Source: Gammaproteobacteria bacterium (GTDB lineage Bacteria; Pseudomonadota; Gammaproteobacteria; Poriferisulfidales; Poriferisulfidaceae). From it: a stretch of DNA of 64,000 nt. This document shows positions 4,435 through 62,202 of the stretch, in pieces. Location of the stretch: NCBI GenBank assembly GCA_028819565.1, contig JAPPLD010000020.1, positions 32,099 through 96,098 of the forward strand, read 5' to 3'. Made by a program: the position numbers and the translations under genes. The number at the start of each line of letters is the position of its first letter. The first letter of the stretch is position 1. The notes beneath the pieces were generated by a model. The model was not told the origin of the DNA and did not search any database. It was given only the letters and a program-made list of their open reading frames with translations.

Positions 4435-4439
4435 CCCCC

Positions 4440-30119: not shown

Positions 30120-30196
30120 ACGACATCCTGCAGGCCAAGTGATACTGGAGGCACCAGTAGAATGGTTGCGAACGAGTACCGGTTTTGAAAGCGGAT

Positions 30197-32539: not shown

Positions 32540-32590
32540 AGTGCCGCTCTGCGGCAGCCGTATTTTCGATCTCGCACGCAGCTCGTTTCT

Positions 32591-35706: not shown

Positions 35707-35755
35707 TTTTCCTTCAACGCCTTGGGCAATTTCCCTGCATGGGAGAAAGACGGAC

Positions 35756-38098
35756 TTACGCCGGAATTGTTTTGCGCGATTTGGTGCGCTGGCCCAAAGT
35801 TATCAGCAAGGAGGGCAGCAGCAGCAGATCGGCAATCAGCGCGAGCACGATGATCAACGCGGTAAGCAATCCCACCTGGACAGTCGGGATGAATGGAGAA
35901 AGGACCAGGATTAGGAAACCTGCCGCCAGCACGGTCGACGTCGTGAACAATGCCCGCCCGACTGCCTGGAAAGCGTAACGCACCGCATCCTCGGCCGTAG
36001 AGTTGTACTCACGGCGTGCCCGGCAGTATTTGCTGAGAAAGTGCACCGAGTCATCCACCACAATTCCGATGGTCATCGCCATAACGACCGACAGCACAAG
36101 CCCGACTTCTCCTACTGCCAGTCCCCAGATTCCAAATCCCATTGCGCCGGGAACGAGATTTGGCACGAGGCTTACGAGACCAAGCCGTAGTGAGCGAAGG
36201 GCGGCGATGAGGAGCATGGAAATGCCGAAAAGCGCGAGCGTCGTTCCGAGCAACATGGCCTTGATGTTGCGTAGCCCGATGTGTGCGAACATTAATGCGG
36301 CTCCTGCGCCTTCGGCTTGAGTGAAGTGGGGCGCATGGTCGTCCAGCCATGCCGCGGCACGCTCGTTCAGTTCCACGACCTCCCGCGAAGAGAGCGTTCT
36401 CGTCGTCACCGTCATGCGGGTGGCTGACCTGGAAACATCAATCTGGTTATTGAGGTCGAGGCCAAGAGGGAGCGAGAGTTCATAAAGGAGCAAGTATTGC
36501 GAGGCGAGGTCGCGGCTGGCGGGTAGCCGATAGGCGGCAGGGTCGTCTCCGTGCATGCTCTTGTTGAGTTGCTGGAAAGTGTCGCTAAGTACCGTGACGT
36601 GACGTGTTTCCGGTTGTACGCGATACCAGGCGGCGAAAGCTGCGAGATTTTCGAGAAAGGCAGGTTCGGAGATCCCGCCCGGCCCAGATGAGACCACCGA
36701 ATATTCAAGCACGGTGTTTCCGCTGAGATGCTCATCCATAAAATCTATATCTCGACGAAACTCCACGCTCTCATCGAAGAAATACACCAAAACATCATTC
36801 AGCTCATTGCGGGGGATGGCTGCGACCAGCATCAGGACCACTGCGACCGAACCCCACAGCAAATGCTTCCGGTGACGCACCACAAATTCCGCAATGACTG
36901 CCATAACCGGATCGGCGTCCTGTCGGATTCTTGGCGCACGGACCGGAAGGAGTGAAAGCAGGGCGGGCAGAAACGTCACCGTGAGCACAAACGAAGCGCC
37001 GACCCCAAATGCGACGAACATTCCGAGGTGACGGTATGGAGGGACTTCAGAGAAATTCATGCTCAGGAACCCAAGTGCCGTCGTTAGGCTCGCGAGGAAG
37101 ACCGGATACAGGTTGATGTTGAGGGATTCGACAATCGCGACGTGTTTCGAGTCTCCAGCCCGCAAGCGTTGCAACAAAGTGACCAGCAGGTGTATGCAAC
37201 TGGCAACAGCGATCATCAGCACGATAGTGGGTGCCGGAGCGGTCGGTGGCGTGAACGGAAGGCCAACCCAGCCCCCCAGCCCCATTGCCACGAGAACCGA
37301 AAAGATGATGATCAAGCCCGTTGCCACGACTCCCGTAAATCCCCGGATCAGGATGCCGAGCGTCAATGCCATGATGGCCAGGCTCGCGGGCAGGAAAGTT
37401 TTCTGGCCGTCTATCGTTGCCCTTGAGAGGGTGTCGTTGATTATCACTGTGCCAACCAGACGGAGATCAATGCCGGGAAAATTTTCTTCCGCTTCGACAG
37501 CAAGGTCATGCGCGAATTTGGCAACTTCGGAGACCTCGGCCGATTCGTCTTCTTCAGAAAGTTTTATGGTGACGCTGACCGCACTCACGCCTCCATCCCG
37601 GGCCACGAGATTCCCAACGAGTCGGGGTTCGGCCAATGCCGTTTCGCGGATCCAGGATCGTTCTTGGACATTATCCAGCTGCAGCGGATTCACGAGATTG
37701 CGCACAACCAAATCGTCGCCGTCGGCGGCGGTATGCTGGAAGTTTGCAATTGAATCGACTCGTGTCGAATACGGTGTTTGCCAGGCGCGGTCGGTAAGCC
37801 AGACTATGGCCGCGAGAGATTGCTCTGATGCGAAATCACGATTTTCCGGAACCACCAGGAAGACGACGTTGTCGTTTTTCCCGTAGGTATTTTCTAGTGC
37901 TTCAAACGCCAAGAGTTGAGGATTGTCCTCATCGAAGAACATACGATAACTTGTAGAGGTCTGAAGAAACATGCTGCCGCTAGCGGCGAGCATGACCAGG
38001 ACCAAAGAGATGATGATGATCGGCCAGCGGGTCGCGATCACCCACTCCCCGAATCGCATTCCAAAAGATTTGGGAGTGCGGGGAGGCTTGCTCGTCAT
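35756..38098 (-). CDS. RND-superfamily exporter (MMPL/HpnN-like, two 6-TM bundles)
   Basis: 780 aa. Two hydrophobic blocks, each after a large periplasmic loop, typical of the COG1033 predicted exporters. Directly downstream, on the same strand, of the NHLP precursor gene. Confidence 0.75.
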   Translation of the reverse strand: MTSKPPRTPKSFGMRFGEWVIATRWPIIIISLVLVMLAASGSMFLQTSTSYRMFFDEDNPQLLAFEALENTYGKNDNVVFLVVPENRDFASEQSLAAIVWLTDRAWQTPYSTRVDSIANFQHTAADGDDLVVRNLVNPLQLDNVQERSWIRETALAEPRLVGNLVARDGGVSAVSVTIKLSEEDESAEVSEVAKFAHDLAVEAEENFPGIDLRLVGTVIINDTLSRATIDGQKTFLPASLAIMALTLGILIRGFTGVVATGLIIIFSVLVAMGLGGWVGLPFTPPTAPAPTIVLMIAVASCIHLLVTLLQRLRAGDSKHVAIVESLNINLYPVFLASLTTALGFLSMNFSEVPPYRHLGMFVAFGVGASFVLTVTFLPALLSLLPVRAPRIRQDADPVMAVIAEFVVRHRKHLLWGSVAVVLMLVAAIPRNELNDVLVYFFDESVEFRRDIDFMDEHLSGNTVLEYSVVSSGPGGISEPAFLENLAAFAAWYRVQPETRHVTVLSDTFQQLNKSMHGDDPAAYRLPASRDLASQYLLLYELSLPLGLDLNNQIDVSRSATRMTVTTRTLSSREVVELNERAAAWLDDHAPHFTQAEGAGAALMFAHIGLRNIKAMLLGTTLALFGISMLLIAALRSLRLGLVSLVPNLVPGAMGFGIWGLAVGEVGLVLSVVMAMTIGIVVDDSVHFLSKYCRARREYNSTAEDAVRYAFQAVGRALFTTSTVLAAGFLILVLSPFIPTVQVGLLTALIIVLALIADLLLLPSLLITLGQRTKSRKTIPA

Positions 38099-38270
38099 CT
38101 ACGCAAACCCTCTCCCTAGGAAGTTTCCTAGAATTTTTCCGTCAAGACATGACGGAGGAGAAACAACTGACTCCTGGCGAGAATGTGTTATGCGTGTTCT
38201 GCGCCAGAAGTCATCTTGTTTCTGGAAATGCTTCTAACTCGACTTGCCAGTTAAGAGAGGCAAGGGTTCG

Positions 38271-38546
38271 TTAGGTACAGCAGCAAAGACCCGCAGCAAT
38301 TGTCTCAAGTTGCTCTTCATCCAGGTCCGGACCTGCCGGCAGGGCAAGATGGAGCGTGGTCATGCTGCTTTCATGTACTACGATTTCAAAGCCTTCCGGA
38401 ACCTCAACGCCGAATTCTTCCGCGATGACGCCTTTAGGGTCGGCTAGCAACCGTTGACGAAAACCAGTGTCTTCACACGCTTTATCCGTCAGGTGCTGAC
38501 GCATTTCCTCGGCCCGTTGCTGGGCCGTTTCGACAAATTCTCCCAT
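38271..38546 (-). CDS. RiPP precursor peptide with nitrile-hydratase-like leader peptide (NHLP family), AG cleavage motif and 5-residue core LCCCT
   Basis: 91 aa with RBS GAGGAGG seven nt before the ATG. Leader LLADPKGVIAEEFGVEVPEGFEIVVHESSMTTLHLALPAGPDLDEEQLETIAAG matches the NHLP consensus (LLANP..AL.EEGIE.PEG.EVKVVEDT..TLHLVLP.....LSDEELE.VAGG). The ORF ends ...IAAG-LCCCT-stop. Confidence 0.8.
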   Translation of the reverse strand: MGEFVETAQQRAEEMRQHLTDKACEDTGFRQRLLADPKGVIAEEFGVEVPEGFEIVVHESSMTTLHLALPAGPDLDEEQLETIAAGLCCCT

Positions 38547-38828
38547 AATTCCTCCTCGCTTAGGTGGGTAATTTGAATACTCATAATGTATTCTTTTTCA
38601 GAGATTTGTCAAGCCCCAGTTGCGCATGTGCAGGCTTTCAGGACTTTACCTTGCGCGCTGATTTTCAGCGGACTTTCGAGGGTTTTTCACTAAGTAAAGT
38701 ATTCTGAAAAAGCTTTGTGCCATACCCGTCAAAATGGCAGAGCAATAACAATTTTCACAACATGCCGTTCTTCCCTAGCAGACAGACGATGACTTTTGAT
38801 AATGGTGTGTCAGTTGTGGCTATAATGA
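38547..38828. promoter_or_regulatory. AT-rich divergent promoter region between the precursor gene and the HlyD/ABC export genes
   Basis: ~280 bp at ~40% GC. Contains inverted repeat GAATAC-N7-GTATTC (38575..38593) ~30 nt upstream of the precursor start, and a TATAAT box at ~38818 on the plus strand. Confidence 0.35.
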
Positions 38829-39737
38829 ATGACCCTATATGGACAAGCATTGATGTTCAATAGTCTGTTTTTTGATGATGCTGCGGCCAGCAGGAACAAA
38901 CGCCATCAACTCGGCTATTTATTAAGGGTAGCGGCTCCTCACGAGCGCGTCATCCTGGCTGGCATCGGTGCGGTTTTGTTGGCGCTCCTCGTTTGGATAT
39001 TATTCGGCAGTGTTGTACGCAGCGTTACGGTCGACGGAGTCCTGCTGAAGCCAGGAATCCGCCATGAGGTTGTCTCGACCGAGCCGGGCCATTTGATGAA
39101 GTTTTTGGTGACCCTTGGAGACCAGATTGAAAAGGGGGGGGCGATTGCCCGTCAGACCGTACCGGAATTGGAGCGCGAGATTACCGCTTTACGTGACCAG
39201 ATTGAGATTCTGGAGGCGGGGGTGCGGCAGGTTGGTGGTGACGGCACGAACTCATTTCTAATCTCGGCCCAAGAAGCATTGCTGCAAATGGAAGCCCGGC
39301 GTATTGCGAAAGAAGTCATCGCCAGCCACATGAATGGCGAAATCATGGTTTTGGATGCTGCCCCGGGAGACTACTTGCCTGCTGGATCAGTTGTTGCCCA
39401 GCTTCGCGATCCGGAGGACAAGCCACTCCAAGCGGTGCTGCTAGTCGCTCCGCGTATGGCAAAACGTCTCCGTGCTGGCATGCAGACATCGGTCGAGGTT
39501 GTAATGTCGGACGGGGCAGTGCGTGAAGTGGATGGAGAAATTGTCGCTGTAACCTCTGGGCCGTTTCCGAATTGGCTTGCGGCGTTTCAGTCGGAGAGCG
39601 TGGATTACGCCTATCGCGTCGACATTACCCTTGACTCTGAATCGAAACTCGCTGTGCCGGACGGCACGCCATGCCACGTACGCATCTTGCTTGGTCGGCA
39701 TTCGCCTATCGCGCTGCTTAGCCTAGAGCAAATTTGA
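38829..39737 (+). CDS. HlyD-family secretion adaptor (NHLM bacteriocin-system secretion protein type)
   Basis: 302 aa. N-terminal TM helix LAGIGAVLLALLVWILFG. Coiled-coil region PELEREITALRDQIEILEAG. C-terminal beta-barrel-type region. Immediately upstream of a C39-peptidase ABC transporter. Confidence 0.7.
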   Translation: MTLYGQALMFNSLFFDDAAASRNKRHQLGYLLRVAAPHERVILAGIGAVLLALLVWILFGSVVRSVTVDGVLLKPGIRHEVVSTEPGHLMKFLVTLGDQIEKGGAIARQTVPELEREITALRDQIEILEAGVRQVGGDGTNSFLISAQEALLQMEARRIAKEVIASHMNGEIMVLDAAPGDYLPAGSVVAQLRDPEDKPLQAVLLVAPRMAKRLRAGMQTSVEVVMSDGAVREVDGEIVAVTSGPFPNWLAAFQSESVDYAYRVDITLDSESKLAVPDGTPCHVRILLGRHSPIALLSLEQI

Positions 39738-39749
39738 TGGCTATCCTGA

Positions 39750-41972
39750 ATGCCTTCTTCCAACCCGAAAGAACCGACTAAACCCGGTAAGTTGCAAATA
39801 AAAGAACGCGAAAAGCGGCGTGTGACTACTCCGCTTCTGCTGCAGATGCACATGACCGAATGCTCTGCCGCATGTTTGGGTAGCGTACTTGCCTATTTCG
39901 GGCGCTGGGTGCCACTGGCCGAATTGCGCGACAGATGTGAGATCAGTCGGGATGGTTCTACAGCTGCCGGCATCAAGCGTGCGGCCCAACACTATGGCCT
40001 CGAATGTTCCGGATGGTTCGGAAAAATTAGCCAGATCAAGCAACGGCCACTCCCGATGATCTTATTCTGGGAATTCAACCACTTTCTGATCCTGGAAGGC
40101 TATGACCGCGATTGGTTCTATCTCAACGACCCAGCCACCGGACGCCGAAATCTCTCAAGGAAGGAATTTGAAAGCGGCTTTACAGGAGTGGCTCTGCAGT
40201 TCGAACCTGGACCGGAATTCCAGCCCGGAGGCGTTCGTCCTAGCGTCTTGGAACGTATCCTGCCCTGGTTGCAAGGCACTTGGGGTGGATTGGCTTATGC
40301 GGTTGGATGCGGGCTATTGCTGGCCGTCCTGGCCCTCGCTACACCTGCATTACTGATCATATTCGTGGATCAAGTATTGGGCAAAAGTGAGCCTTGGGGA
40401 GGGATTGTGGCCGGTGCCATGGCAAGCGCGGCCGTTCTCATCTACGGGTTGACTTGGTTGAAACGGAGATGTTTGCGGCGTTTGGCTGCCCGCATCTCGA
40501 TAGTTGCTTGGGATCAATGTCTGACTCGGCTACTGCAGTTGCCAATCGACTTCTTCCATCATCGGTTAGCGGGAGAACTGACAGCCCGCGTCCTGTCTGT
40601 CGACAAGATTGCCAAGGCTCTTTCGAATCACTTCATCAGCCTGTTGATCGAACTCGGAATGAGCATAGTGTTTTTGTTCGCCATGCTGGCGTACGAGCCG
40701 ACGTTAGCGCTAATCGTCTTGGGCTTGGCCGTACTTAATGCCGTTTTGATGCGCCTGATCTCACGTATTCGCGCCGATGCGAGCCATACCCTGCAGAGAG
40801 AGCAAAGCCTGTTACTGGGCATCGGAACGATGATGCTGCATCACACGGATACATTGCGGGTGACTGCTGCGGATGATCGCTTCTTTTCCCGCTGGAGCGG
40901 CCATCAAGCTCGAGAGATAGAAGCGCGCCAGTGCTTTTCCGAGTGGAGCCATGTTAATTCGGCTTTGCCGGGCCTGTTCTTGATCTTGGGGAGTGTGGCT
41001 GTATTGGCGATTGGCGCAACAGAGGTTATGGCTGGTGAAATGACACTCGGCATGTTGGTGGGATTTTATGTTGTGGCGGCTATGTTTTTGGAACCCGTCG
41101 GGCGTTTCGTTTCGTTTTCAGACGATCTTCAGATACTTGAGACGGATATGCAACGCTTGGAAGACATTACGAAGGCCTCGAAAGATCCTGGGTTAGCCCA
41201 GAGGCGTGATTCGTCGGATTCCATTGCCACACTGAATGGGCGGTTGCAGTTGGCTGGGCATGTAGAGCTGCGCGACATCACCTTTGGCTACAACCAGAGT
41301 CGCCCTCCCATAATCGAGAATTTTGACTTGACAATAAAACCAGGGCAGAGAGTCGCAGTGGTTGGGGCGAGCGGGTCGGGAAAATCGACACTGGCCCGCT
41401 TGATTTCCGGCCTCTACCAGCCATGGTCCGGTGAAATTCTGTTCGACGGTTATCTCAGAGATGAAGTTCCTGACGAAGTTCTATCCCGGTCTTTATCGAT
41501 GGTTGACCAGAATATTATTCTTTTTTCTGCGACAGTACGTGAGAACATCACTTTATGGAATCCTGCCATTCCAGACGATATTCTGGCTAGGGCAGCCCGC
41601 GATGCCTGCATTCACGATGAGATTCTCAGCCGGCCACATGGCTACGCGACGCAGGTCGAGGAAGACGGAGATAATTTCAGCGGCGGTCAGCGACAGCGAT
41701 TGGAAATCGCGCGCGCATTGGTCGGCAACCCGACAGTATTGATTCTTGATGAAGCAACCAGCGCGCTTGACGCGGCCACCGAGGATTTGGTCGACGATGC
41801 ACTACGCCGCCGGGGAATTAGTTGCCTAATCGTGGCGCACCGGCTGAGTACGGTTCGGGATTGCGACCAGATTATTATGCTCGAAAAGGGGAAGGCAGTA
41901 CAGCGTGGCACACACGCTGAGTTGATAACGGACAAGGACGGGACCTACTACCGGCTTGTCCAGGCTGGTTAG
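39750..41972 (+). CDS. ABC transporter with N-terminal C39 bacteriocin-processing peptidase domain (NHLM-system peptidase/ATP-binding protein type)
   Basis: 740 aa. C39 domain LLQMHMTECSAACLGSVLAYFG with the catalytic Cys. Six-TM domain. Walker A GASGSGKST, signature FSGGQRQRL, Walker B ILILDEATSALD. Confidence 0.85.
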   Translation: MPSSNPKEPTKPGKLQIKEREKRRVTTPLLLQMHMTECSAACLGSVLAYFGRWVPLAELRDRCEISRDGSTAAGIKRAAQHYGLECSGWFGKISQIKQRPLPMILFWEFNHFLILEGYDRDWFYLNDPATGRRNLSRKEFESGFTGVALQFEPGPEFQPGGVRPSVLERILPWLQGTWGGLAYAVGCGLLLAVLALATPALLIIFVDQVLGKSEPWGGIVAGAMASAAVLIYGLTWLKRRCLRRLAARISIVAWDQCLTRLLQLPIDFFHHRLAGELTARVLSVDKIAKALSNHFISLLIELGMSIVFLFAMLAYEPTLALIVLGLAVLNAVLMRLISRIRADASHTLQREQSLLLGIGTMMLHHTDTLRVTAADDRFFSRWSGHQAREIEARQCFSEWSHVNSALPGLFLILGSVAVLAIGATEVMAGEMTLGMLVGFYVVAAMFLEPVGRFVSFSDDLQILETDMQRLEDITKASKDPGLAQRRDSSDSIATLNGRLQLAGHVELRDITFGYNQSRPPIIENFDLTIKPGQRVAVVGASGSGKSTLARLISGLYQPWSGEILFDGYLRDEVPDEVLSRSLSMVDQNIILFSATVRENITLWNPAIPDDILARAARDACIHDEILSRPHGYATQVEEDGDNFSGGQRQRLEIARALVGNPTVLILDEATSALDAATEDLVDDALRRRGISCLIVAHRLSTVRDCDQIIMLEKGKAVQRGTHAELITDKDGTYYRLVQAG

Positions 41973-44895
41973 TCCCATGGCGTCTCCGGAATCCCACTCA
42001 CTTGCCAGTTTGGCGGTTCGATCAGGATCTTTGGTGCCCTGCGCCGGAAACCTACCGATAGACCTGGACGACCCGCAAAGCATCTGGTTCATCGAGAAAG
42101 GTGCGGTTGATTTGTTTCTAGTCGAGCGTCAGGGCGGAGTGGATCAGGCATCCCCGCAACACCTGTTTCGTGCCCACTCCGGACGTCTTCTGCCGGGTGT
42201 GGTTCCGCAGGAAGGGGACACGACTTTCGGCTTGGCTGCGAAAGGATTGCCGGACACGGTTTTGTGGCGTCTTTCGATTGCAGACTTGAGTGTGGTTCCG
42301 AATGCGGAATTGGCAGAGCATGTCGATGCATGGATCGCGGATGTTTCTACTGAACTGTCCCGGGATGCAGGACAGCGGCCACGGCCGGACACGCCTGTCG
42401 AGCCCGGCAAGATTTTTCCAGAAGTGGGCGGCACACTTTCGTCCCGGCAGGGCGTGGTGTGGGTATCGCAACTGTCTTCAGGAGCGGGATTGTTTCTGGG
42501 GCTAATCGATCCGGTCGAGGGCGATTTGTATGGTGAGCCCGCCAGTGGCACCGTACCGCTCACGCCTGCGACTTGGCTGACCTTGATGGAAAAAACGAAG
42601 ATTTCCATTCGATCCTCGGAAAATTTTGCCAAAGAGGGGCTTCTTCTGTCTGCCTTAGCGAATTTCCACGTGACAGCGTTTTCTCATGAGCGGCTCAACC
42701 GCAATCTGGCGGTTGCTGATCAGGCGAATTTGGAGCGGGATCGCGTGACTAGTCGCCGCAGCGACGAAGAGCATGCCCGACACCGCCTGTTCAATCTCTA
42801 CGATCTTCCGGATGAAGAAAAGGCCGATGTGGACGGTACAGCATTGCATGAGGTGTTGAAAGTTATAGGGGAACATGAAGGTATTGATTTCAAATGGCCC
42901 GCAAAATCGGGCATTGTTGATTCGGCTCCTACCCTCGGCGACGTCTTGGATGCATCTGGAGTGCGCGGTCGGCAGGTGCGGCTAACTTGGGAAGAACGGT
43001 GGTGGATTGGAGACAGCGGTGCGATGTTGGCGTTTCGGGAAGCCGATGGACAGCCTGTGGCATTGCTGCCGGGTATGCTCGGGCATTATCAGGAAACGGA
43101 GATAGTCGGACAACGCGGCACTCGAGTGACCCCCGAACGTGCGAAGGCGCTCGATCCTGATGCCTGGGTTTTCTACCAGCCGCTGTCGTCGGGCAAGGTC
43201 GGATGGCGAGACTTGTACCGCCTTGTTCGCAAAGGTCTAGTTGCTGATTTTTTACGCTTTGCGACAGCCGGGCTGCTTGGTGGCTTGGTCATACTGGTGC
43301 CTGCCGTAGTGGTCGGTTTCGTCGTGGATAAAGTCATTCCAACTGGTGAGATAAGTCTGCTGTATCTGGCGACAGCAACACTGGCGGCATTCGCTTTGGT
43401 TGGGGCATTACTGCATATCCTTCAGGGCATGGCGCTCATGCGCCTCGAAGGACGTGGCGCGTCTCGACTTGAGGCTGCATTCTGGGATCGCCTGCTTCGG
43501 CTGCCTTTGAGTTTCTTGCGTCGTTACCCGGCGGGCAATCTCGCCATGCGAGGTATGACGTTTCAGGCTCTCCGCGATGCCGTGCGGGCCGTGATCGCAA
43601 ATGCAGTGCTGTCAATCATTTTCCTGTTACCCGCGTTTCTCCTGATTTCCTACTACGATGAGGTGCTGGGAACTGTTACAGCTGCTTTTGGTTTTTTGTC
43701 CTTGGTTGTAATCGTGGTATTGGGCCTGCAGCAAATCTCGCCTTATGGTCAAGTGATGCAGACCGTTCACCACATGGCGGGCCAGCTGTTTCAGTTCATC
43801 AACGGCATTTCTAAACTACGGATCGATGATGCGGAAGGGACCGCTTTCGCGGTTCTGGCGCGTGGCTACCGCGAGCAGAAACGCGCGGAATCCAAACTGG
43901 GCGCCTTGGAAGATCATCTACAGGCATTTGGAGCCGCATTGCCACTGCTAGCCGGTGCGGTGCTGTTTCTGATGATGACGCTGGGCCGGGAGGGACTCGA
44001 GATCGGAGACTTCCTTGTCATTTACCTCGTATTTATAGCGTTTCAGGCGGCGGTGGCCCGGTTGGGCGCATCGTTCAGTGCAGTCGTTGGCATCATGCTA
44101 GCATTCGATCAAATCCGCCCATTTCTATCCGAGACCCCGGAGACAAGTTTTGAGGGAGAACTTGTCGAGAGTTTGGGGGGCGAGGTCGTGTTCGACCACA
44201 TCACTTTTCGATATGATCCTGAGGGTCCCCTGATTCTCGACGATGTCACAATTCGCGCCAACCCCGGCGAGTTTGTCGCTATTGCCGGCGAGTCGGGGGC
44301 GGGCAAGAGTACGATTTTCCGAATTGCGCTTGGCTTGGACCATCCGTCTTCCGGGGCGGTGTACTACGACGGGCGCGACCTTCAGCATCTCAACCTCAAG
44401 CAAGTGCGCCGGAAGATTGGCGCAGTTCCTCAGGACCTGCAATTGCATCCAGAGGACGTATGGGACAACATCGTTGGAGACCGGGAAGGTGTGACCAGTG
44501 ATGTCGCATGGACAGCCGCCAAGGCCGCATCTGTCGACCGCGACATCATGCGGATGCCGATGGGGATGCTGACGTGCGTGGGTGGTGGTGGCCTTACGTC
44601 AGGAGGAGAAAGTCAGCGTATCGTGATTGCTCATGCGCTGATTGAGACTCCCCGAGTCATGTTGCTTGACGAGGCGACGAATTGGCTCGACAACGATAAT
44701 CAAGCCAGGGTCATGGACAATCTCGCGAGTCTACGTTCAACTCGGATTGTCATTGCCCACCGACTTTCAACGTTGCGCCAGGCAGATCGCATTTATGTCA
44801 TGCAAGCCGGGAAAGTGGTCGAAGTGGGGACCTTCGAGACATTGATGGAGGTTGGAGGGGTTTTTCAGGATCTAGTTCGCCGTCAAGTCGCCTGA
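41956..44895 (+). CDS. ABC transporter ATP-binding/permease protein with N-terminal cyclic-nucleotide-binding-like domain (NHLM-system second ABC protein type)
   Basis: 979 aa. N-terminal ~300 aa with a cNMP-binding-like fold (IWFIEKGAVDLFLVERQGG). TM domain. Walker A GESGAGKST. Degenerate signature TSGGESQRIVIA. Walker B VMLLDEATNWLD. Confidence 0.8.
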   Translation: MSRLVSPMASPESHSLASLAVRSGSLVPCAGNLPIDLDDPQSIWFIEKGAVDLFLVERQGGVDQASPQHLFRAHSGRLLPGVVPQEGDTTFGLAAKGLPDTVLWRLSIADLSVVPNAELAEHVDAWIADVSTELSRDAGQRPRPDTPVEPGKIFPEVGGTLSSRQGVVWVSQLSSGAGLFLGLIDPVEGDLYGEPASGTVPLTPATWLTLMEKTKISIRSSENFAKEGLLLSALANFHVTAFSHERLNRNLAVADQANLERDRVTSRRSDEEHARHRLFNLYDLPDEEKADVDGTALHEVLKVIGEHEGIDFKWPAKSGIVDSAPTLGDVLDASGVRGRQVRLTWEERWWIGDSGAMLAFREADGQPVALLPGMLGHYQETEIVGQRGTRVTPERAKALDPDAWVFYQPLSSGKVGWRDLYRLVRKGLVADFLRFATAGLLGGLVILVPAVVVGFVVDKVIPTGEISLLYLATATLAAFALVGALLHILQGMALMRLEGRGASRLEAAFWDRLLRLPLSFLRRYPAGNLAMRGMTFQALRDAVRAVIANAVLSIIFLLPAFLLISYYDEVLGTVTAAFGFLSLVVIVVLGLQQISPYGQVMQTVHHMAGQLFQFINGISKLRIDDAEGTAFAVLARGYREQKRAESKLGALEDHLQAFGAALPLLAGAVLFLMMTLGREGLEIGDFLVIYLVFIAFQAAVARLGASFSAVVGIMLAFDQIRPFLSETPETSFEGELVESLGGEVVFDHITFRYDPEGPLILDDVTIRANPGEFVAIAGESGAGKSTIFRIALGLDHPSSGAVYYDGRDLQHLNLKQVRRKIGAVPQDLQLHPEDVWDNIVGDREGVTSDVAWTAAKAASVDRDIMRMPMGMLTCVGGGGLTSGGESQRIVIAHALIETPRVMLLDEATNWLDNDNQARVMDNLASLRSTRIVIAHRLSTLRQADRIYVMQAGKVVEVGTFETLMEVGGVFQDLVRRQVA

Positions 44896-54784: not shown

Positions 54785-55139
54785 CAAATGTGACAGCCGA
54801 TAAAACATATAAATTCATTATAAATCAATAATCTTGACAAGTGTCTGCCATAGTGTATATTTTTCGGAGACGGACCCACCATCGTCAAGACGGGACTAAG
54901 ACCCATGCGTTCTTCTTTACACAGGGAAGTGTTTTGGTGGCTTGCGGTATTGGCTGGCACGGAAAGACGAAAAAGTAGCAGTGCTGGCCGGTCGGGCATG
55001 AGGGCAATCCCTCGTCTCCGGTTGATCCTTTCCCAAACATCCCGGCATTTGCCGATTCTCGATATCACCCGGCGGGAGTTTTCCGGTCATGCCGAGCGGT
55101 ATGGAGTGGCGGGCGGAGCCTGGGAACGGAGACGGAATA

Positions 55140-56138
55140 ATGAAAATAAAAAGCTCCTCAAGTTTTGCTCTAATCAGTTACATTTCGCGCTGTTACCACG
55201 ATGGCGACAGGGCGGCTCTGGATGTCCTGAATATCGACCCTGGGCAAGCGCGCCGAATCAGCAGGCTCTCTGCATTTGAAAGCAACACGCTCAGCGGCAT
55301 TGCTGGGCGTTTCACTATCTTCAGGCTGCAGTTCAGCAGCCTGGAGAAATGTTATCGCCTGGTTGTAGAGGATCCCGTTTCCCTTAGCGGTTCCCGGTCC
55401 AAGACCAAGGAGGTCGATCTCTGCTTGCATGTGTTCAATCACATCATTACCCTGTACCGCCGCAGCGAGCAGCAAGCGTTGGCCGAGATCGGACTCGAGC
55501 CGGAGCAGGCGGAATTCATCAGTCTGCGCCCTTGGGTGGAGCTTCAGAAGTTGGCTCGGTATCTCTGGTTTTTCACTACCGTAAAAATCGACAACAAGCT
55601 CTTGGAGCAGTCGATCGATACGGCGATTGCTTCTGCCCGCTGGATCGGCCAGTGCGCGGAACTGATCCGCGCAGGTGCGCCTCGGGACCTGATGACGCGC
55701 TATTACGGCATGAGTTGCGAGTTGTACGCGGCGGCACGCGAGATGCACGGCCGGCAGTGCCGTGGGCGCCCCCGGGTCCTGTCGGAAGACCTGCAATACC
55801 TTCTGTACGAGGAGTTCGTGCGCCGTTACCAGAGCTATGACGAAGGTGTCGATCCGCTGTGCCAGCCGGGCTTTTTCTTGGCGATTTACGAAAGCCTTGA
55901 GCGGAAGGTTTCGCTGCGGGAGATCTGGATTCTGATCCAGGAATGGCTGAATGGGAAGCGAGAACTCCGGCGGCTTGCAGGCGTGCCGGAGAAATGCTCA
56001 GTGCCGGTTCAGGATTCGGGCTTCAATACGCCGAGTACAGCACCACGTTTGCGCAACCGTTCCAAAATCTCCAAGCCGCCATCCACCACGGCCTCGGGGG
56101 TGTCCCGTCCAAGCTCGGCGGCAATCCTTTCGAGGTGA
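55140..56138 (+). CDS. hypothetical protein (low-GC; 3' end uncertain, ORF runs into the convergent DUF2063 gene)
   Basis: Start at MKIKSSSS (Met18 of ORF 55089..56138), after a 350-bp AT-rich region. Protein-like composition until ~55.95 kb, then Pro/Ser/Arg-rich read-through that overlaps the minus-strand gene. Confidence 0.35.
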   Translation: MKIKSSSSFALISYISRCYHDGDRAALDVLNIDPGQARRISRLSAFESNTLSGIAGRFTIFRLQFSSLEKCYRLVVEDPVSLSGSRSKTKEVDLCLHVFNHIITLYRRSEQQALAEIGLEPEQAEFISLRPWVELQKLARYLWFFTTVKIDNKLLEQSIDTAIASARWIGQCAELIRAGAPRDLMTRYYGMSCELYAAAREMHGRQCRGRPRVLSEDLQYLLYEEFVRRYQSYDEGVDPLCQPGFFLAIYESLERKVSLREIWILIQEWLNGKRELRRLAGVPEKCSVPVQDSGFNTPSTAPRLRNRSKISKPPSTTASGVSRPSSAAILSR

Positions 56139-56788
56139 GACCGAGCTGGCGTGGCGGGCTGATCCTTCAGCAGGGCAATCAGCCGGGCGGCCACTGGATT
56201 GAGTTCCATGAACCGGGCCTTTCCGGCGGGATTGCGGAAAACAAACAGGAAGGTCGGGATCTCGGGTTTCTGTTGCGGTTGGAAGTCCTGGTTGATACGG
56301 TGCACCGGGTACGCGTAGACGCAGAGCTCCGAGGCTGACGACAGGATCACGGGATAATCCAGCAGGTCGCCGTCAGGGTCGATCCGTTCCGGATCGTGCG
56401 GGGTGATCTCGTCGCTAAGTCGGATCTTGACGTCAATCCATTCGTGGTGGGCGAGTTCCGCCAGAAAGGGGGGAATATCGGGTTCGGAGACGTGTTCCCG
56501 GGAGAGGTAGTCGACGAATTCCTGCCCGATCTTGTGAAAATACGGGGTGTGGCAGCCGTGCTGCGAGAAAAAGGCGTAGGACAGCTCACGCAGCGCATCC
56601 GGTCCAAGCAGTTGGGCGGTCACGGGGAACGAACGCTCGACGAACCCTTGGATGTTCTTAAAGAAGAGGTCGCGGTAGACGGCCATGCGCCGTTCCTCGA
56701 CATCCTTCGGGCGGGGGTTCTGACGCGGGTCGCGCAGGTGCGCGCAGAATTCTTCCTGGACGCGCTGGAAGTCGGGTTGCGCGGCCAT
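56009..56788 (-). CDS. DUF2063-family protein (BufC/MbnC-like partner of the DUF692 oxidase)
   Basis: ORF 56009..56887. Start placed at Met34, 4 nt after the DUF692 stop. Downstream of a DUF692 gene in the typical two-gene arrangement. Confidence 0.65.
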   Translation of the reverse strand: MAAQPDFQRVQEEFCAHLRDPRQNPRPKDVEERRMAVYRDLFFKNIQGFVERSFPVTAQLLGPDALRELSYAFFSQHGCHTPYFHKIGQEFVDYLSREHVSEPDIPPFLAELAHHEWIDVKIRLSDEITPHDPERIDPDGDLLDYPVILSSASELCVYAYPVHRINQDFQPQQKPEIPTFLFVFRNPAGKARFMELNPVAARLIALLKDQPATPARSHLERIAAELGRDTPEAVVDGGLEILERLRKRGAVLGVLKPES

Positions 56789-56792
56789 TGCG

Positions 56793-57638
56793 TCAGGCGG
56801 AATGGGGGGCCTGGGCCTGATGGTCGCGGATGCGCTGGACTTCTCCAAGCAGTTGATCGATCGGCGGGAAATTGAAGTCGCGCTCAAGCAGGGTCGGCAG
56901 CGGACCGAAGCGTTCGTATGCGTGATCCAGGAGATCCCAGACCGGCTCGATCACGTCGGCGCCGTGCGTATCGATAATCAGGTCCTTGGCCTCGTTGTAG
57001 TGGCCGGCGATGTGGAAGTACGCCACCCGTTCGGCAGGCAACGCGTCCAGGTAGGCGTGCGGGGAATAGCCGTGGTTCACTGAATTGACGTAGACGTTGT
57101 TGACGTCCAGCAGCATCAGGCAATCGGCTTCCTCGAGCACGTCTCGGACGAAGTCGATCTCCTCCATCTGCTTGCCCGGCGCGGCATAGTAGGAGACGTT
57201 CTCGATCAGCATCTGGCGGTTCAGTGTTTGCTGCACCTTGCGGATTCGGTCGGCAACGTAATGCACGGCTTCTTCCGTGAACGGGATCGGCGCGAGGTCG
57301 TAGAGTTGCGCGTGATCCGAACAATAACTCAGGTGTTCGCTGTACAGGCCGATGCCGTAATCGTCCAGAAAGCCGCGGATGCCCTCAAGCAGCTCACGAT
57401 CCAGGGGAGCTGGGCCGCCAAGCGACAGGGACAGACCATGCGTCGTGATGGGATAGCGTTCGGCAAGCTCGTCGAAACTGGATTTCAGGGAACCGCCGAG
57501 GCCAATCCAGTTCTCGGGAGCGACCTCGAAGAAATCGATTGCGCCGTCCTCGAAGCGGAGGAACTCGTTCAGGATGTCGCGGCGCAGGCCCAGGCCGGAA
57601 CTGCGCGGGCGCGGCCTTTCACTCGGTTGGACAGGCAT
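56793..57638 (-). CDS. DUF692-family multinuclear non-heme iron oxidase (MNIO; BufB/MbnB-like)
   Basis: 281 aa. [13 protein letters not shown]...[11 protein letters not shown]...HGLSLSLGG...LYSEHLSYC...MLIENVSYY are the conserved DUF692/UPF0276 TIM-barrel motifs. Confidence 0.75.
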
Positions 57639-58239
57639 TTCGGCAGGATCTCGAGATCCAGTAGTCCAGGCTGACGCAGCGTCCCGAACCGATGAAGAAC
57701 AGGGTCAGCAGCATGATGAAGTAAGTGGCCGCGAATTCGATGCCGTTGTTCAGCATGACCAGGCTGCCGTGCTCGGTCAGCCAGGCATAGTCGCCGTCCT
57801 CGCGCAGGATAGATTTGGCAACCTGCAGCCGTTCGACGGCTTCGACGGTACGCTCGGTGGCGAAAAATCCGCTGCCGGTGGCGATGGCGAGCCAGCCGTT
57901 CTTCCAGTGCACGGCAAAGGTGGCGACCAGCATGGTGACCATCAGGGGGATGCTCATCCAGCGCGTGGCGAGCCCGACCAGCAGCAGGAGGCCGCCGAAC
58001 AGTTCGGCCCACCCGGCCAGGGCGGCCATCAGGGCCGGGAACGGCAGCCCCAGGCCGTACTCGAACCACTGCACGGTGCCGGCGTTCGGCAACAGGCTCG
58101 GAAGGTCCAGTTTTCGGGAGCCCGCCTCGATGAAGATCGGGGCCAGGTACAGACGCAGCAGCAGCGGCGGCAGGAAGTCAAGCGGCTGCAGCCGTTCGAG
58201 AGAGTTGTAAGCGCGACAGGCACAACGGATAAGGTTCAT
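57619..58239 (-). CDS. DoxX-family membrane protein
   Basis: 206 aa with four TM helices ([11 protein letters not shown]..., [36 protein letters not shown]). DoxX-type architecture within the DUF692 operon. Confidence 0.6.
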
Positions 58240-58372
58240 GGTGCAAGTCCTCGTTTACAGTCGAGCGACATCAGGTCGGTGCCGTCCGGGGAATGGTTCC
58301 CGGAGGACCCGGATTCGGTCCGCGCCCCCCGGAGTCCGGTTGCAGGCACTTTGCGTGCCGGCAGCTTGGGCT

Positions 58373-58744
58373 TTACTCGCTCGCCTCGCCCTCGGAGGCG
58401 CCTTCGGCGTCACCGCCGCACTTGCCCTCGCCGCATTTGCCTTCCCCGCACTTGCCTTCACCCTCTTTCTCGGCTTCGCCTTCGGCAGGAGCTTCCCCTT
58501 CAGCCCCTTCTTCGGCCGGGGCTTCGCCTTCAGCGGCTCCATCCTTGGCGTCCTCTCCGCACCGGCCTTCCCCGCACTTGCCCTCGCCGCAGTTGCCTTC
58601 GCCACCATGTGCGTCGGCGACCATGTGGCCCGGGGACAGTTCGGTCAGGCTGAAAGGATTGTCGGCGGCGACGGCGCTGGAGCACGCCAAGGCGCCCGTG
58701 ATGCCCAAGGCCAGCGCGATGGGGCTTAGATCTTTCTGGTTCAT
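58373..58744 (-). CDS. bufferin-like Cys-rich RiPP precursor (Sec signal peptide plus six EG[KR]CG repeats)
   Basis: 123 aa. Signal peptide MNQKDLSPIALALGITGALACSSAVAA. Repeats NCGEGKCGEGRCGED ... EGKCGEGKCGEGKCGGD, separated by an acidic Glu/Ala/Gly-rich spacer. First gene of the DoxX/DUF692/DUF2063 operon. Confidence 0.7.
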   Translation of the reverse strand: MNQKDLSPIALALGITGALACSSAVAADNPFSLTELSPGHMVADAHGGEGNCGEGKCGEGRCGEDAKDGAAEGEAPAEEGAEGEAPAEGEAEKEGEGKCGEGKCGEGKCGGDAEGASEGEASE

Positions 58745-59084
58745 GTGTCGGATACTCCTTGATTAATGGGGACAGAAATGTCCATTCGATTGTAACAGAC
58801 CATGCGGCGGAAAAGTTTTGATTTTGGGGTTCCCTTCGGACAGGGGCGTTTTCTCCGGGCCGGAGCAGATCTCAGAGACGCCGCTCGGGCCACCCACACG
58901 GGTCGGAAATCCCGCTCAGGCCCTTCGGATTGCACGCGGTGCAGGTATGTTGTCCTGCAGGATCGTTCCTGCTACTGTCGGTCGTGTGCGAATATTAGGG
59001 GGCCTCTAGTGTGCGGTCCCCTAATATCATAAGATCGTTTCCGAGGACGATTCTGGAGGCACTGCAATCCGGAGGGGCAAACAG

Positions 59085-59309
59085 GTGAAGACATTGCCCC
59101 GCTGTTCTGCTGTCGAGCAGGATCCCGATAAAGTGAGCGGAGCCTTGGTTTTTCAAGGCACGCGCGTACCCGCCGCGGCACTGTTCGAGAATCTCCGCGA
59201 CGGGGCCACGCTCGAACAGTTTCTGGATTGGTTTTCGGGTGTTGAGCGGTGGCAGGTGGAGAGCGTTGTGGACTACGAAAGCCAAGAGTTGAGGGAACTG
59301 GCTTTTTGA
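59085..59309 (+). CDS. DUF433 domain protein (antitoxin-like, orphan)
   Basis: 74 aa. VSGALVFQGTRVPAAALFENLRDGATLEQFLDWF matches DUF433. No DUF5615/PIN partner follows. Confidence 0.55.
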   Translation: MKTLPRCSAVEQDPDKVSGALVFQGTRVPAAALFENLRDGATLEQFLDWFSGVERWQVESVVDYESQELRELAF

Positions 59310-59400
59310 AAAGACTGCTTAATCAGGGTATGCGGCAGAATGCCATAAACCTTATTTTGCTTCAATTATGATGGTGTGTGTGGGTGCAGAGAGAGCGAAG

Positions 59401-62202
59401 TCATTTGCCACGCTTTTTCTTGCGAGGTTGACGCTTCGTTGCTGCGGTTGCAAGAGGTAAGGACATTTTCTCGTAAAGTCCAAAGAGATACTCAATCCGC
59501 TCGCGCTCGGACAAGAATTCGGCACGGCGATATAGCCGGTCCACCGCGCAATCAAGTGCTTGATGCGCCCGGCGCAGGGTCGGCGGCATCAGGTCCGGAT
59601 CATAGAGGCTGGCCAATGTCGCGTCAGGATGTTCGGCTCGGGCATCCAATACGGCTTGAGCCAAGGGCTCCAATTTGGACAGATCAGCATCCTTGGACGG
59701 TAGAGGGAAGGTGTTGTAGACAAGACCGATGGAGTATCGATAGTCACTTTTCAACCGTCCGCCGATATGACGTAGCCAGGCCATGTGCATGGCGGAAGTC
59801 AGCAGGGCGAAGTCGGCGAGGGTTGCGTTTTGAAGCAGTAAGGCCGAGTCACTTGGGATTACTGGTGGTTCAAGCCAGCCAATTGGCGCATAGTCTCGTC
59901 GTTCAGAGCTAACTCGTGGAATAAGCAGAAATGGTGCCGCAGGCAGCACATTGATATGGTAGAGCGTTGGTGTTTCGGCGAGTTTCCGCGTCGGAGCGCT
60001 CTTGCTGGCTTTTCGGTAGGCACGGACAGCAGCAATCCGTTCCCGCACGTGCGGCAACCGCGCCAGCACATCGGGCGGGGCATCGTGCAGGGCTAGAATC
60101 CAGCGTTGGCCGCCTTGCAGGTATTCACGCGCTCCGACGAACGGCCGAAGGAAGGGTGTGGCGTTTGGCTCGGCGTCCAGAAACGTGGTACGTTCCTCCA
60201 CATCAAAAATGTAATGGCCCCCGTCGATGGGCTTGGAGCCGATGATCAGCCTGGGCATCCCATTGATCGGAGCGCTCTCTTCCCGCACCACCAGGCGCGG
60301 GTCGGAAAGCCCACTGGCATCGAACAGGTAGGGTGACAGCAGACTGTGGGTGCTTTCCTCCGGCTCACCGTTGATGTCGGGGTAGCTGAACAGACGTTTT
60401 TCCGGTCGTGCGGTGTCCTGCCGGTCAAGACCAAGGATGATTACATGCACGTGCGCTTTGCCGCGTGCGTCCGACCCCCACGCAAAAGTCCGATGCGCGA
60501 ACGCGATCTCCAGTTTGTGGCGGTCGAACAGGATCGGCCACAGCTGCGCAACCTGTTCGCCTTGCGTGAGTGAGTTGGTGGCCACGAAGCCGATTCGAGC
60601 AGGACTTTTCCGAAGATATTCTCCTGCTTTGATCAACCATGCAGCCACGTAGTCGAGGGAGCCGCCACTCTTGCCAAGCGCCGCGATCCTGTGCACTTGG
60701 GCACGTTGATCTGTCGTCTGCAATTTCGCACCCGAGAAGGGAGGATTACCGAACATGAAAGAACAACGCTCGGGTTGCAACAGATCCGCCCACTCAATCT
60801 CCAATGCATCTCCATGGAAGATATGCGGGGATTTCTCTAGTGGGATCCGGGTGTAGGTCTGGCCGAACTCCAGGCTCAGTTGGTTGTTCATGATGTGATC
60901 CATCATCCACAACGCAGTTTCCGCGATGCGGGCCGGGAATTCTCCAATCTCAATGCCGTAGAACTGATCGACATCGATCTGGGACAGGTCTGCCGCGAGC
61001 GCGTCCATCTGCCTTTTTCCCTGCAATTTCGGATAAAGCTCCCTCAGGACCTCCATCTCAAGCAATCGCAGTTCCCGATACGCGATGATCAGGAAATTGC
61101 CGCAGCCGCAGGCCGGATCGAAGAAAGCCAGGGAACCGAGTTTTTCCTGGAACCGTTCAAGCCCCGTGCGCCGATCTCGGGATTTGCGTTTCTTCAGGCG
61201 TTCGAACTCGGAACGCACGTCGTCCATGAACAACGGCTCGATGACCTTGAGAATGTTCTTCTCGGTTGTGTAGTGCGCTCCTTGGGTGCGCCGCTCTGCC
61301 GGATCCATGACCGACTGGAACAGGGCGCCGAAGATGGCCGGTGAAATCTCCGACCAGTCGAACCGGGAAGCATCCAGCAATGCCCCGCGCATGGCCGCAT
61401 CGAACGCGGGGATGCGCAACGACCCGTTGAACAGTTCGCCGTTGACGTGGGGGAATCGCGCGAGGTCCTCGTCGAGCGTGTTTTGGCGCCGGTCTTCCGG
61501 CGTGTCCAGCACCTGGAACAGTTGCGACAGCCACAGGCCAAGATCTGCGCCGTCTGTCCCAGTCCGTGTCTCGATGAAGTCGAGAAAAATGTCACGCGGC
61601 TCGAAAATCCCGGTGTCGTCGGCAAACAGGCAGAACACGATTCGCACCAGGAATTGCTCCAAGTCATGCCCTTGGTAGCCTGCATTGTGGAGCGCATCAT
61701 GCAGCCGTCCGACCAGTTCGGCAGCCTTGACGTTGGCGGGATCCTGATCGCGGAAAGTCCGACGCTGGCGACCGCAGATGAATCCGAAATCCTCCACATG
61801 GCCGGGAAGTTCGGCAAGCGGGAAAAAGAGGGCCTGGCGCTCGCTGAGGTCGTGGAGTTCGAAGGTCTGGAAGTCGCTGACCAGGACATAGCGGGGATGA
61901 TCGCGTTCAGGCAGGGCGAGCAGATAGTCGAGTGCCTGGCTGTAGGCTTTCTCGAGATTGCGTCCGGCGCTTTTCTGCTCCACGACCAGCATGCCCGGCC
62001 AGAAAAGGTCGATGAAGCCTGAGTGGTTGTCGATTTTCCCGACATGTGCCTCGTAGGTGGCGACTCGTCGTCGCCGAACACCGAAGATCTCGAAGAATTC
62101 GTTGTAGAAACTCTGCGTCTCACCTTTCTCGTATCGGGCATCCCTCCACTCTTCGGCGAAGGCGGCGGCCCGGACGCGCATCTCGTTCCACGATAGGTGC
62201 AT
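59401..62202 (-). CDS. MmeI-family Type IIL restriction-modification enzyme (single-chain endonuclease, gamma-class N6-adenine MTase and TRD)
   Basis: 933 aa. N-terminus MHLSWNEMRVRAAAFAEEWRDARYEKGETQSFYNEFFEIFGVRRRRV matches the MmeI-family N-terminal nuclease region. MTase motif I FFDPACGCGNF and motif IV FMFGNPPFSG. Confidence 0.7.
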   Translation of the reverse strand: MHLSWNEMRVRAAAFAEEWRDARYEKGETQSFYNEFFEIFGVRRRRVATYEAHVGKIDNHSGFIDLFWPGMLVVEQKSAGRNLEKAYSQALDYLLALPERDHPRYVLVSDFQTFELHDLSERQALFFPLAELPGHVEDFGFICGRQRRTFRDQDPANVKAAELVGRLHDALHNAGYQGHDLEQFLVRIVFCLFADDTGIFEPRDIFLDFIETRTGTDGADLGLWLSQLFQVLDTPEDRRQNTLDEDLARFPHVNGELFNGSLRIPAFDAAMRGALLDASRFDWSEISPAIFGALFQSVMDPAERRTQGAHYTTEKNILKVIEPLFMDDVRSEFERLKKRKSRDRRTGLERFQEKLGSLAFFDPACGCGNFLIIAYRELRLLEMEVLRELYPKLQGKRQMDALAADLSQIDVDQFYGIEIGEFPARIAETALWMMDHIMNNQLSLEFGQTYTRIPLEKSPHIFHGDALEIEWADLLQPERCSFMFGNPPFSGAKLQTTDQRAQVHRIAALGKSGGSLDYVAAWLIKAGEYLRKSPARIGFVATNSLTQGEQVAQLWPILFDRHKLEIAFAHRTFAWGSDARGKAHVHVIILGLDRQDTARPEKRLFSYPDINGEPEESTHSLLSPYLFDASGLSDPRLVVREESAPINGMPRLIIGSKPIDGGHYIFDVEERTTFLDAEPNATPFLRPFVGAREYLQGGQRWILALHDAPPDVLARLPHVRERIAAVRAYRKASKSAPTRKLAETPTLYHINVLPAAPFLLIPRVSSERRDYAPIGWLEPPVIPSDSALLLQNATLADFALLTSAMHMAWLRHIGGRLKSDYRYSIGLVYNTFPLPSKDADLSKLEPLAQAVLDARAEHPDATLASLYDPDLMPPTLRRAHQALDCAVDRLYRRAEFLSERERIEYLFGLYEKMSLPLATAATKRQPRKKKRGK

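Follow-up and report, generated by a model that had tools for sequence, protein, structure and literature searches.

To which family of peptide-maturing systems do four co-oriented genes in a gammaproteobacterial contig belong, and is the order in which they stand out of the ordinary? The genes lie on the minus strand at 56009..58744 of a 64,000-nucleotide stretch of contig JAPPLD010000020.1 (assembly GCA_028819565.1), hereafter called the window, and encode a Cys-repeat precursor peptide, a DoxX protein, a multinuclear non-heme iron oxidase (MNIO, DUF692) and a DUF2063 partner protein. An earlier note on this DNA had described them as a bufferin-type operon for a peptide that is made on ribosomes and modified after translation (RiPP), with a non-canonical gene order. 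The list of open reading frames (ORFs) of the window and the Pfam matches bear out the four genes and their positions. The locus is very probably an hvf/oxazolin-type RiPP gene cluster, hvfA-hvfX-hvfB-hvfC, and it falls within the known variation of this already described family, gene order and repeats both being ordinary. The names in use for such clusters are hvf operon (PMC11252979), Buf_EGKCG or oxazolin (PMC12452194) and the Lys-Cys group of captophorins (PMC13097082).

Family calls were obtained from Pfam and NCBIfam profile scans, with the NCBIfam model cut-offs given in bits. Four of the four proteins pass NCBIfam Hvf models (Table 1), while the MNIO fails the BufB model (NF050167, 274.2 bits, cut-off 310), its second-best NCBIfam match, and on these grounds the cluster is assigned to the hvf/oxazolin type. 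The MNIO scores 51.2 bits with the MbnB model (TIGR04159, cut-off 325) and is far under the ApyH and ChrH models as well. The precursor matches NF050137 (KCGExKCG_twice, a HvfA-family domain) over two stretches with 25.6 bits, above the cut-off of 19.5, and the Pfam scan returned no family for it at E<=0.01, PF10048/DUF2282 included. The bufferin-type label is thus wrong for the precursor and for the oxidase alike. The broader designation in the earlier note does hold: the operon is of the MNIO/DUF2063 RiPP kind, and its Sec-type precursor with Cys repeats probably binds copper. About 2,000 Buf_EGKCG/oxazolin precursors, mostly from Pseudomonadota, have been described (PMC12452194), and oxazolins form a precursor cluster apart from the bufferins (PMC11626156). 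Characterised prototypes come from Haemophilus, Neisseria, Fontimonas and Microbulbifer. Their modification, first assigned as oxazolone/thioamide, has since 2026 been reassigned by two groups as 5-thiooxazole, which makes each Cys 4 Da lighter (PMC13097082; bioRxiv 10.64898/2026.07.17.739211), although NCBIfam still labels the family 'oxazolone/thioamide-modified'. The product signature of the family comprises the 5-thiooxazole, −4 Da per motif Cys, absorbance at 302-305 nm and Cu(I) binding (PMC13097082, PMC11252979), and the thiooxazole mass shift of −4 Da per Cys that had been predicted for this locus is in line with the revised chemistry.

What the data show directly is which genes these four are, to which family they belong and that their arrangement is kept in relatives. 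Exact matches to the precursor, the DoxX protein and the MNIO are present among the GenBank proteins of metagenome-assembled genomes (MAGs) of uncultured Gammaproteobacteria, where the respective records read 'hypothetical protein', 'DoxX family protein' and 'DUF692 domain-containing protein'; the operon had therefore not been annotated as such in this organism. Newer HvfA and HvfB names already stand on the records of some relatives. The main value of the assignment lies in correct annotation, as HvfA-family metallophore, HvfX, HvfB and HvfC instead of generic names; no new class of system is opened by the locus.

Is the precursor ORF a genuine gene? The hvfA ATG is preceded, at a distance of 10 nt, by an AAGGAG ribosome-binding site (58755..58760) that is conserved in relatives. 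The precursor has 1308 homologues at E<=1e-3, with a common signal peptide, an NPF..TEL..YMVA motif and EGxCG repeats; the length differences from its closest relatives are all in-frame indels, and both Cys blocks are tandem repeats for which Tandem Repeats Finder gives a 15-nt period (over 58552..58603 in block 1 and 58416..58459 in block 2). For these reasons, and also because of the NCBIfam match above cut-off, the ORF is a genuine gene and not a chance GC-rich reading frame. Its product reads MNQKDLSPIALALGITGALACSSAVA↓ADNPFSLTELSPGHMVADAHGG-EGNCGEGKCGEGRCG-(32-aa acidic spacer)-EGKCGEGKCGEGKCG-GDAEGASEGEASE, the arrow marking the predicted signal peptide cut. Instead of a classical RiPP leader it starts with a predicted Sec-type signal with n-, h- and c-regions and AVA↓AD, recognised by inspection, and the signal peptidase I site AxA↓A(D/E)NPF that is conserved family-wide among homologues is kept. 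There are six motif Cys, plus a seventh (Cys21) inside the signal peptide, and none elsewhere in the mature peptide. Five of the six repeats fit the pattern EG[KR]CG previously given for all of them, the first being EGNCG, and the long acidic EGEAPAE spacer described between two CG triplets is indeed present. Spacers and tail of this precursor are acidic and without Lys, whereas most family members have Lys-rich spacers. A β-helix, reported for some family members, was sought by AlphaFold2 and the precursor model came out disordered instead, with a mean pLDDT (predicted local distance difference test) of 48.5; the predicted disorder is compatible with the flexibility that the Fontimonas enzyme pair FonBC needs of its substrate.

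The repeat core is highly variable. Relatives with nearly identical N-termini have 2 to 9 Cys motifs, with repeats gained and lost in frame; Cys block 2 is missing altogether in many close alleles, and the length of the acidic spacer differs among close relatives. The four closest relatives, L001-L004, include MAGs of the sponge symbiont Candidatus (Ca.) Porisulfidus, and the enzymes of L001-L003 are 91-97% identical to those of the window while the precursor core varies. Natural alleles with 2 to 9 modification sites could make useful substrates for the enzymology of repeat processing by HvfBC. In several relatives (L020, L030, L037, L049, L052, L077) the EGKCG precursor encoded upstream of the MNIO gene contains an EF-hand-like segment (DxDxDG), either embedded or at the C-terminus, as in the published Buf_EGKCG/EF-hand fusion type (PMC12452194).

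Table 1. Coordinates of the features discussed in the text, numbered along the window.
Feature	Coordinates	Strand	Evidence or remark
YcaO-domain protein, 784 aa, N-terminal winged-helix domain	30185..32539	+	
MMPL/RND-like protein	35756..38098	-	
C39-peptidase ABC exporter	39750..41972	+	
Second ABC protein	41956..44895	+	
DUF2857 protein gene, convergent with hvfC	55089..56138	+	overlaps hvfC 3' end by ~130 nt (56009..56138)
hvfC, DUF2063/RRE partner (PME1), 259 aa from ATG 56788	56009..56788	-	PF09836 3e-25, PF22106 NGO1945_C 1.4e-26; NF050145 HvfC 269.6 bits, cut-off 142
hvfB, MNIO (DUF692), predicted Cys-to-5-thiooxazole maturase, 281 aa	56793..57638	-	PF05114 (MbnB_TglH_ChrH) 1.1e-104; NF003818 HvfB 420.8 bits, cut-off 360
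hvfX, DoxX-family inner-membrane protein, 206 aa	57619..58239	-	PF07681 7.6e-23; NF050144 HvfX 211.8 bits, cut-off 80
Conserved GC-rich hairpin, hvfA-hvfX spacer	58298..58334	-	stem ~15 bp, kept in four relatives
hvfA-like precursor gene	58373..58744	-	ORF, 123 aa; HvfA/oxazolin (Buf_EGKCG) family
Cys block 2, EGKCG x3 (Cys99, Cys104, Cys109)	58415..58459	-	translation
Acidic spacer, residues 64-95, AEGEAPAE twice	58460..58555	-	translation
Cys block 1, EGNCG-EGKCG-EGRCG (Cys52, Cys57, Cys62)	58556..58600	-	translation
Signal peptide, residues 1-26: MNQKD n-region, LSPIALALGITGALA h-region, CSSAVA↓AD; Cys21 in GALAC-SS	58667..58744	-	sequence inspection
Cys21 codon of hvfA	58682..58684	-	
Candidate extended -10 element TGTTACAAT, lying ~45 nt upstream of the hvfA ATG	58789..58797	-	conserved as TGnTACAAT
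DUF433 gene	59085..59309	+	
MmeI-family type II restriction-modification gene, five of five MmeI Pfam domains	59401..62202	-	

The three downstream genes are closely packed. hvfX and hvfB overlap by 20 nt and hvfC starts 4 nt past the hvfB stop, so that the former description of all four genes as overlapping or tightly spaced fits these junctions and not the hvfA-hvfX spacer of 133 nt. The start of hvfC is most likely ATG 56788 and not TTG 56887, because the match to the family model starts at residue 43 of the long ORF and because the protein collection contains no 292-aa version. The closest solved structure to the MNIO is 3BWW (E = 7e-79). Residues R19, R20, D254 and F255 and the His/Glu/Asp/Asn motifs are invariant among relatives (alignment A1). 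Matched by motif, R19/R20 would correspond to R15/R16 of FonB, the Fontimonas MNIO, D254 to its catalytic D249 and F255 to its specificity residue F250. These RR and DF positions have been connected with the catalytic base and with substrates of the EGKCG/Lys-Cys kind, and at the position of FonB F250 Lys-Cys MNIOs have Phe where Cys-Lys MNIOs have Asp (PMC13097082). 3BWW can be aligned over the NN and DTHG motifs; going by this alignment and the published residue numbers, these motifs are probably those containing HvfB N175, D242 and H244, three residues shown to be essential (bioRxiv 10.64898/2026.07.17.739211). To judge by these residues the MNIO has what one would expect an active member of the HvfB subgroup to have.

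A working mechanism, in which chemistry, export and copper binding are drawn from characterised homologues (for chemistry and copper binding PMC11252979, PMC13097082, PMC12538549, PMC13056109), would run as follows. In the cytoplasm HvfC would bind the disordered precursor and form a heterodimer with the iron enzyme HvfB, and this complex would enable the mixed-valent diiron state of HvfB. With O2, HvfB would then perform a four-electron oxidation of each motif Cys (X-Cys-Gly), to give predicted 5-thiooxazoles at Cys52, 57, 62, 99, 104 and 109 and a total mass change of −24 Da. The modified peptide would be exported via Sec, with removal of the signal peptide probably at AVA↓AD, and in the periplasm or envelope it may bind Cu(I) and buffer copper or oxidative stress. 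HvfX, a presumably co-transcribed membrane protein, is probably dispensable for the modification, as DoxX is in bufferin 1 (PMC11626156).

How does the locus compare with the characterised systems? The hvf operon of nontypeable Haemophilus influenzae (NTHi; PMC11252979; bioRxiv 10.64898/2026.07.17.739211) shares with it the four protein families, the Sec signal and six EGKCG-type Cys, and the expected chemistry is alike, namely 5-thiooxazole, −4 Da per Cys and Cu(I) binding. It differs in its order, HvfX-HvfA-HvfB-HvfC (X-A-B-C) against A-X-B-C in the window, in arranging its Cys as three AEGKCGEGKCG doublets instead of two triplets around a 32-aa acidic spacer, and in having two additional Cys in a disulfide in the N-terminal region, whereas the mature peptide of the window has no non-motif Cys. 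Fontiphorin (FonABC, Fontimonas thermophila), gonophorin (Neisseria gonorrhoeae) and the captophorin Lys-Cys class at large (PMC13097082) combine an MNIO, a PME1 protein and an EGKCG-repeat precursor as in the window; the RR and DF positions of this class are conserved in the MNIO of the window, and DoxX often co-occurs. In contrast to these systems, the window peptide has Asn in its first and Arg in its third motif at position 3, Arg being tolerated by FonBC, and its spacers are acidic and not Lys-rich. The bulbicupramide cluster mmrABC of Microbulbifer (PMC12538549) likewise pairs an EGKCG cassette precursor, with 5-8 Cys depending on the strain, with an MNIO/DUF2063 pair; it has the order A-B-C, Lys-flanked cassettes and no DoxX gene, unlike the window. 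Bufferin 1 (buf1ABCD, Caulobacter vibrioides) has the MNIO, DUF2063 and DoxX proteins and a Sec-signal precursor in common with the window, and its product contains 5-thiooxazoles and sequesters periplasmic copper; its precursor, however, is a folded DUF2282 protein, DoxX is its last gene and it is under SigF/NrsF control (PMC11626156), and the MNIO of the window stays under the BufB cut-off. Lipo-NedA of Neisseria dentiae (PMC13056109) resembles the window precursor in its EGKCG repeats and in a signal-peptide Cys with a possible lipobox; the NedA signal is predicted by SignalP to be of the signal peptidase II type, whereas the putative lipobox in the window is non-canonical and followed by a signal peptidase I site.

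Whether the position of DoxX is unusual was judged from a survey of the 80 best species-level loci encoding MNIO relatives (58-95% identity to the window MNIO), the neighbours of which were sorted by phmmer and motif searches. An HvfX-type DoxX gene is absent nearby in 38 of the 80, lies downstream of hvfC in 25 and directly upstream of hvfB in 16 (six with A-X-B-C, ten with X-B-C), while X-A-B-C, the NTHi prototype order, occurs once, at a locus presumed to be X-B-C before the precursor search. A Microbulbifer locus (L064) is among the 80, and a published survey likewise found the oxazolin core genes 'in various combinations' (PMC12452194). The gene order had been called non-canonical; this holds against buf1ABCD and not within the Hvf family, and as a novelty it is ruled out by the survey together with the prototype papers, the position of DoxX being variable. 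A-X-B-C is common to the window and L001-L004, which share a syntenic block of an rnfB-like gene, nth, hvfA, hvfX, hvfB, hvfC, a convergent DUF2857 gene, COQ7 and a gene for an Fe-S/CCG protein; rnfB-nth-hvfXBC is retained at further loci. A-X-B-C is thus a common minority arrangement and a trait of the lineage at a fixed chromosomal site, and not a reshuffled bufferin operon. That a sponge-symbiont lineage, some chromosomes of which measure ~1.6-2 Mb, keeps a probable copper-binding peptide system at a fixed site is a modest lead for metal and oxidative-stress handling in symbiosis.

In seven loci (L005, L006, L016, L021, L022, L031 and L058, at ~4200..6650 in each) hvfX-hvfB-hvfC is present but the 5 kb to each side encode no EGKCG-type precursor, and in L016, L021, L022 and L031 the hvfXBC trio lies directly downstream of rnfB-nth. 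These precursor-less trios may have a substrate encoded at another site, or their substrate may have been lost.

Several observations weigh against the hvf/oxazolin assignment or what it implies. The precursor does not reach the narrower HvfA equivalog model (NF050188, 25.6 bits, cut-off 95). Its first motif, EGNCG, has Asn at position 3, a substitution outside the FonA variant panel, in which Ala, Arg and Thr were tolerated (PMC13097082), so that Cys52 is the site at which modification is least certain. Through Cys21 the peptide could be diverted into the lipoprotein pathway. Neither beside the operon nor among the annotated ORFs of the window was a copper-homeostasis gene or metal-responsive regulator seen, and the homologous Microbulbifer cluster was neither expressed nor copper-induced (PMC12538549), which leaves the physiological role uncertain; the chemistry, export and metal binding proposed for this locus are, moreover, carried over from homologues.

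Of the other readings, two concern the kind of system. A strict bufferin (Buf1/DUF2282 or Buf2/BUF_6/12Cys) encoded in a rearranged buf operon would account for the MNIO/DUF2063 pair together with DoxX, for a Sec-signal precursor with six motif Cys, for BufB being the second-best match of the MNIO, and for the observation that bufferin- and oxazolin-associated MNIOs stay in one sequence cluster (PMC12452194). We nevertheless judge it highly improbable: the precursor is without a DUF2282 match and belongs by type to a separate precursor cluster, the oxidase passes HvfB and not BufB, and its F255 stands where the Cys-Lys MNIOs have Asp. For Buf2 in particular, a Cys-Lys motif and a folded six- or twelve-Cys domain are expected, as opposed to Lys-Cys (EGKCG) motifs in a precursor predicted to be disordered; the NCBIfam scan gave no Buf2 match, the presence of a Buf2 model in the library not being confirmed. 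The earlier note had set a missing bufferin match of the precursor beside a grouping of the DUF692 protein with non-RiPP clades as grounds for doubt; the match is indeed missing, yet the MNIO groups with a RiPP clade. A methanobactin-like secreted chalkophore, made by oxazolone/thioamide chemistry for copper acquisition, is a reading to which we give hardly any credence. The enzyme superfamily is the same, with the weak MbnB match and a match to 7DZ9 at 5.7e-13, and the NCBIfam family name still carries the older chemistry, but the MbnB score is far under its cut-off, the precursor has a Sec signal and not an MbnA-type leader, no MbnA-like ORF, protease, exporter or TonB-dependent receptor adjoins the operon, and the Hvf modification itself has been reassigned.

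The remaining readings keep the hvf/oxazolin assignment and ask where the peptide goes and what it does. If Cys21 were a lipobox cysteine, signal peptidase II would cut just in front of it, and a NedA-like, membrane-anchored and lipidated thiooxazole peptide would be displayed on the outer membrane or on vesicles. GALAC21 fits a PROSITE PS51257-like pattern, the +2 residue is Ser and hence no inner-membrane retention signal, and Cys21 is kept in each of the 21 precursor clusters of the lineage that were examined and also in L004 (MLACTS), which is more divergent, while it is missing from nearly all relatives outside the Ca. Porisulfidus-like lineage. Lipidated oxazolins have been demonstrated experimentally for NedA (PMC13056109), so a lipidated product would still be of a known kind. 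However, the strict lipobox [LVI][ASTVI][GAS]C is not matched (−3 Ala, −2 Leu), the signal peptidase I site is kept six residues downstream of Cys21, and these relatives hardly differ in their N-termini as a whole, which makes the conservation of Cys21 weak evidence; we therefore regard lipidation as rather unlikely. Less likely still is a reading in which, on the model of the NTHi virulence factor, the peptide acts mainly where host and symbiont meet and not in copper detoxification, with the variable core as a result of diversifying selection. The closest relatives are MAGs of a sponge symbiont in which the operon is retained, some of them assembled as chromosomes of ~1.6-2 Mb; the core varies from 2 to 9 motifs with enzymes >90% identical; and NTHi HvfA promotes host-cell invasion (PMC11252979). 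Against this, slippage in 15-nt tandem repeats is expected to make the number of repeats vary, as it does throughout the family, and a role at the interface is compatible with copper binding too. About equally improbable is a joint reading, in which the Ca. Porisulfidus hvf operon would be a conserved host-interface module with a core retuned by gain and loss of 15-nt repeats, a possible Cys21 anchor and orphan hvfXBC trios; alleles may then present 2 to 9 thiooxazole sites, many of them lacking the second Cys block and keeping just the acidic tail. Were it true, the precursor-less hvfXBC would point to a substrate gene at another site or to a second role of the trio. That a sponge-symbiont lineage, some chromosomes of which measure ~1.6-2 Mb, keeps a probable copper-binding peptide system at a fixed site is a modest lead for metal and oxidative-stress handling in symbiosis.

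For expression of the hvf/oxazolin operon, a candidate promoter element was found by alignment only (A2): TGnTACAAT is kept in the window and in L001-L003, and a function as extended −10 element is suggested by its sequence. A sigma-70 promoter scan of the region in which both hexamers were required gave none, and in an intrinsic-terminator scan of the region terminator-like matches were no commoner than in shuffles. The hvfA-hvfX spacer folds at −61.5 kcal/mol (z = −2.76 vs shuffles). In its hairpin the stem changes among four close sequences are one-sided, with no compensatory change, and no U-run follows; as a structured RNA the spacer is thus a weak candidate. Placed after hvfA, the hairpin may act as a partial terminator or mRNA stabiliser and so raise the ratio of precursor to enzyme transcript.

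The surroundings of the operon contain one segment particular to this genome. The MmeI and DUF433 genes (59085..62202) are inserted between nth and hvfA in the window and not in L003 or L004, and L001 has a 47-aa MmeI C-terminal remnant at the corresponding position. This segment, which lies directly upstream of the candidate hvf promoter, is an insertion/deletion polymorphism. The MmeI and DUF2857 neighbours had suggested a mobile-element origin of the operon itself; this is rejected in view of the synteny with L001-L004, the MmeI/DUF433 segment alone being inserted, and no tRNA gene was found within the window. The DUF2857 gene and its overlap with hvfC are conserved in L001-L004, so that DUF2857 looks here like a stable chromosomal neighbour by COQ7 and not a sign of a mobile element.

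Elsewhere in the window, the genes at 30185..44895, among them those for the YcaO-domain protein and the C39-peptidase ABC exporter (Table 1), make up a possible second RiPP or bacteriocin cluster.

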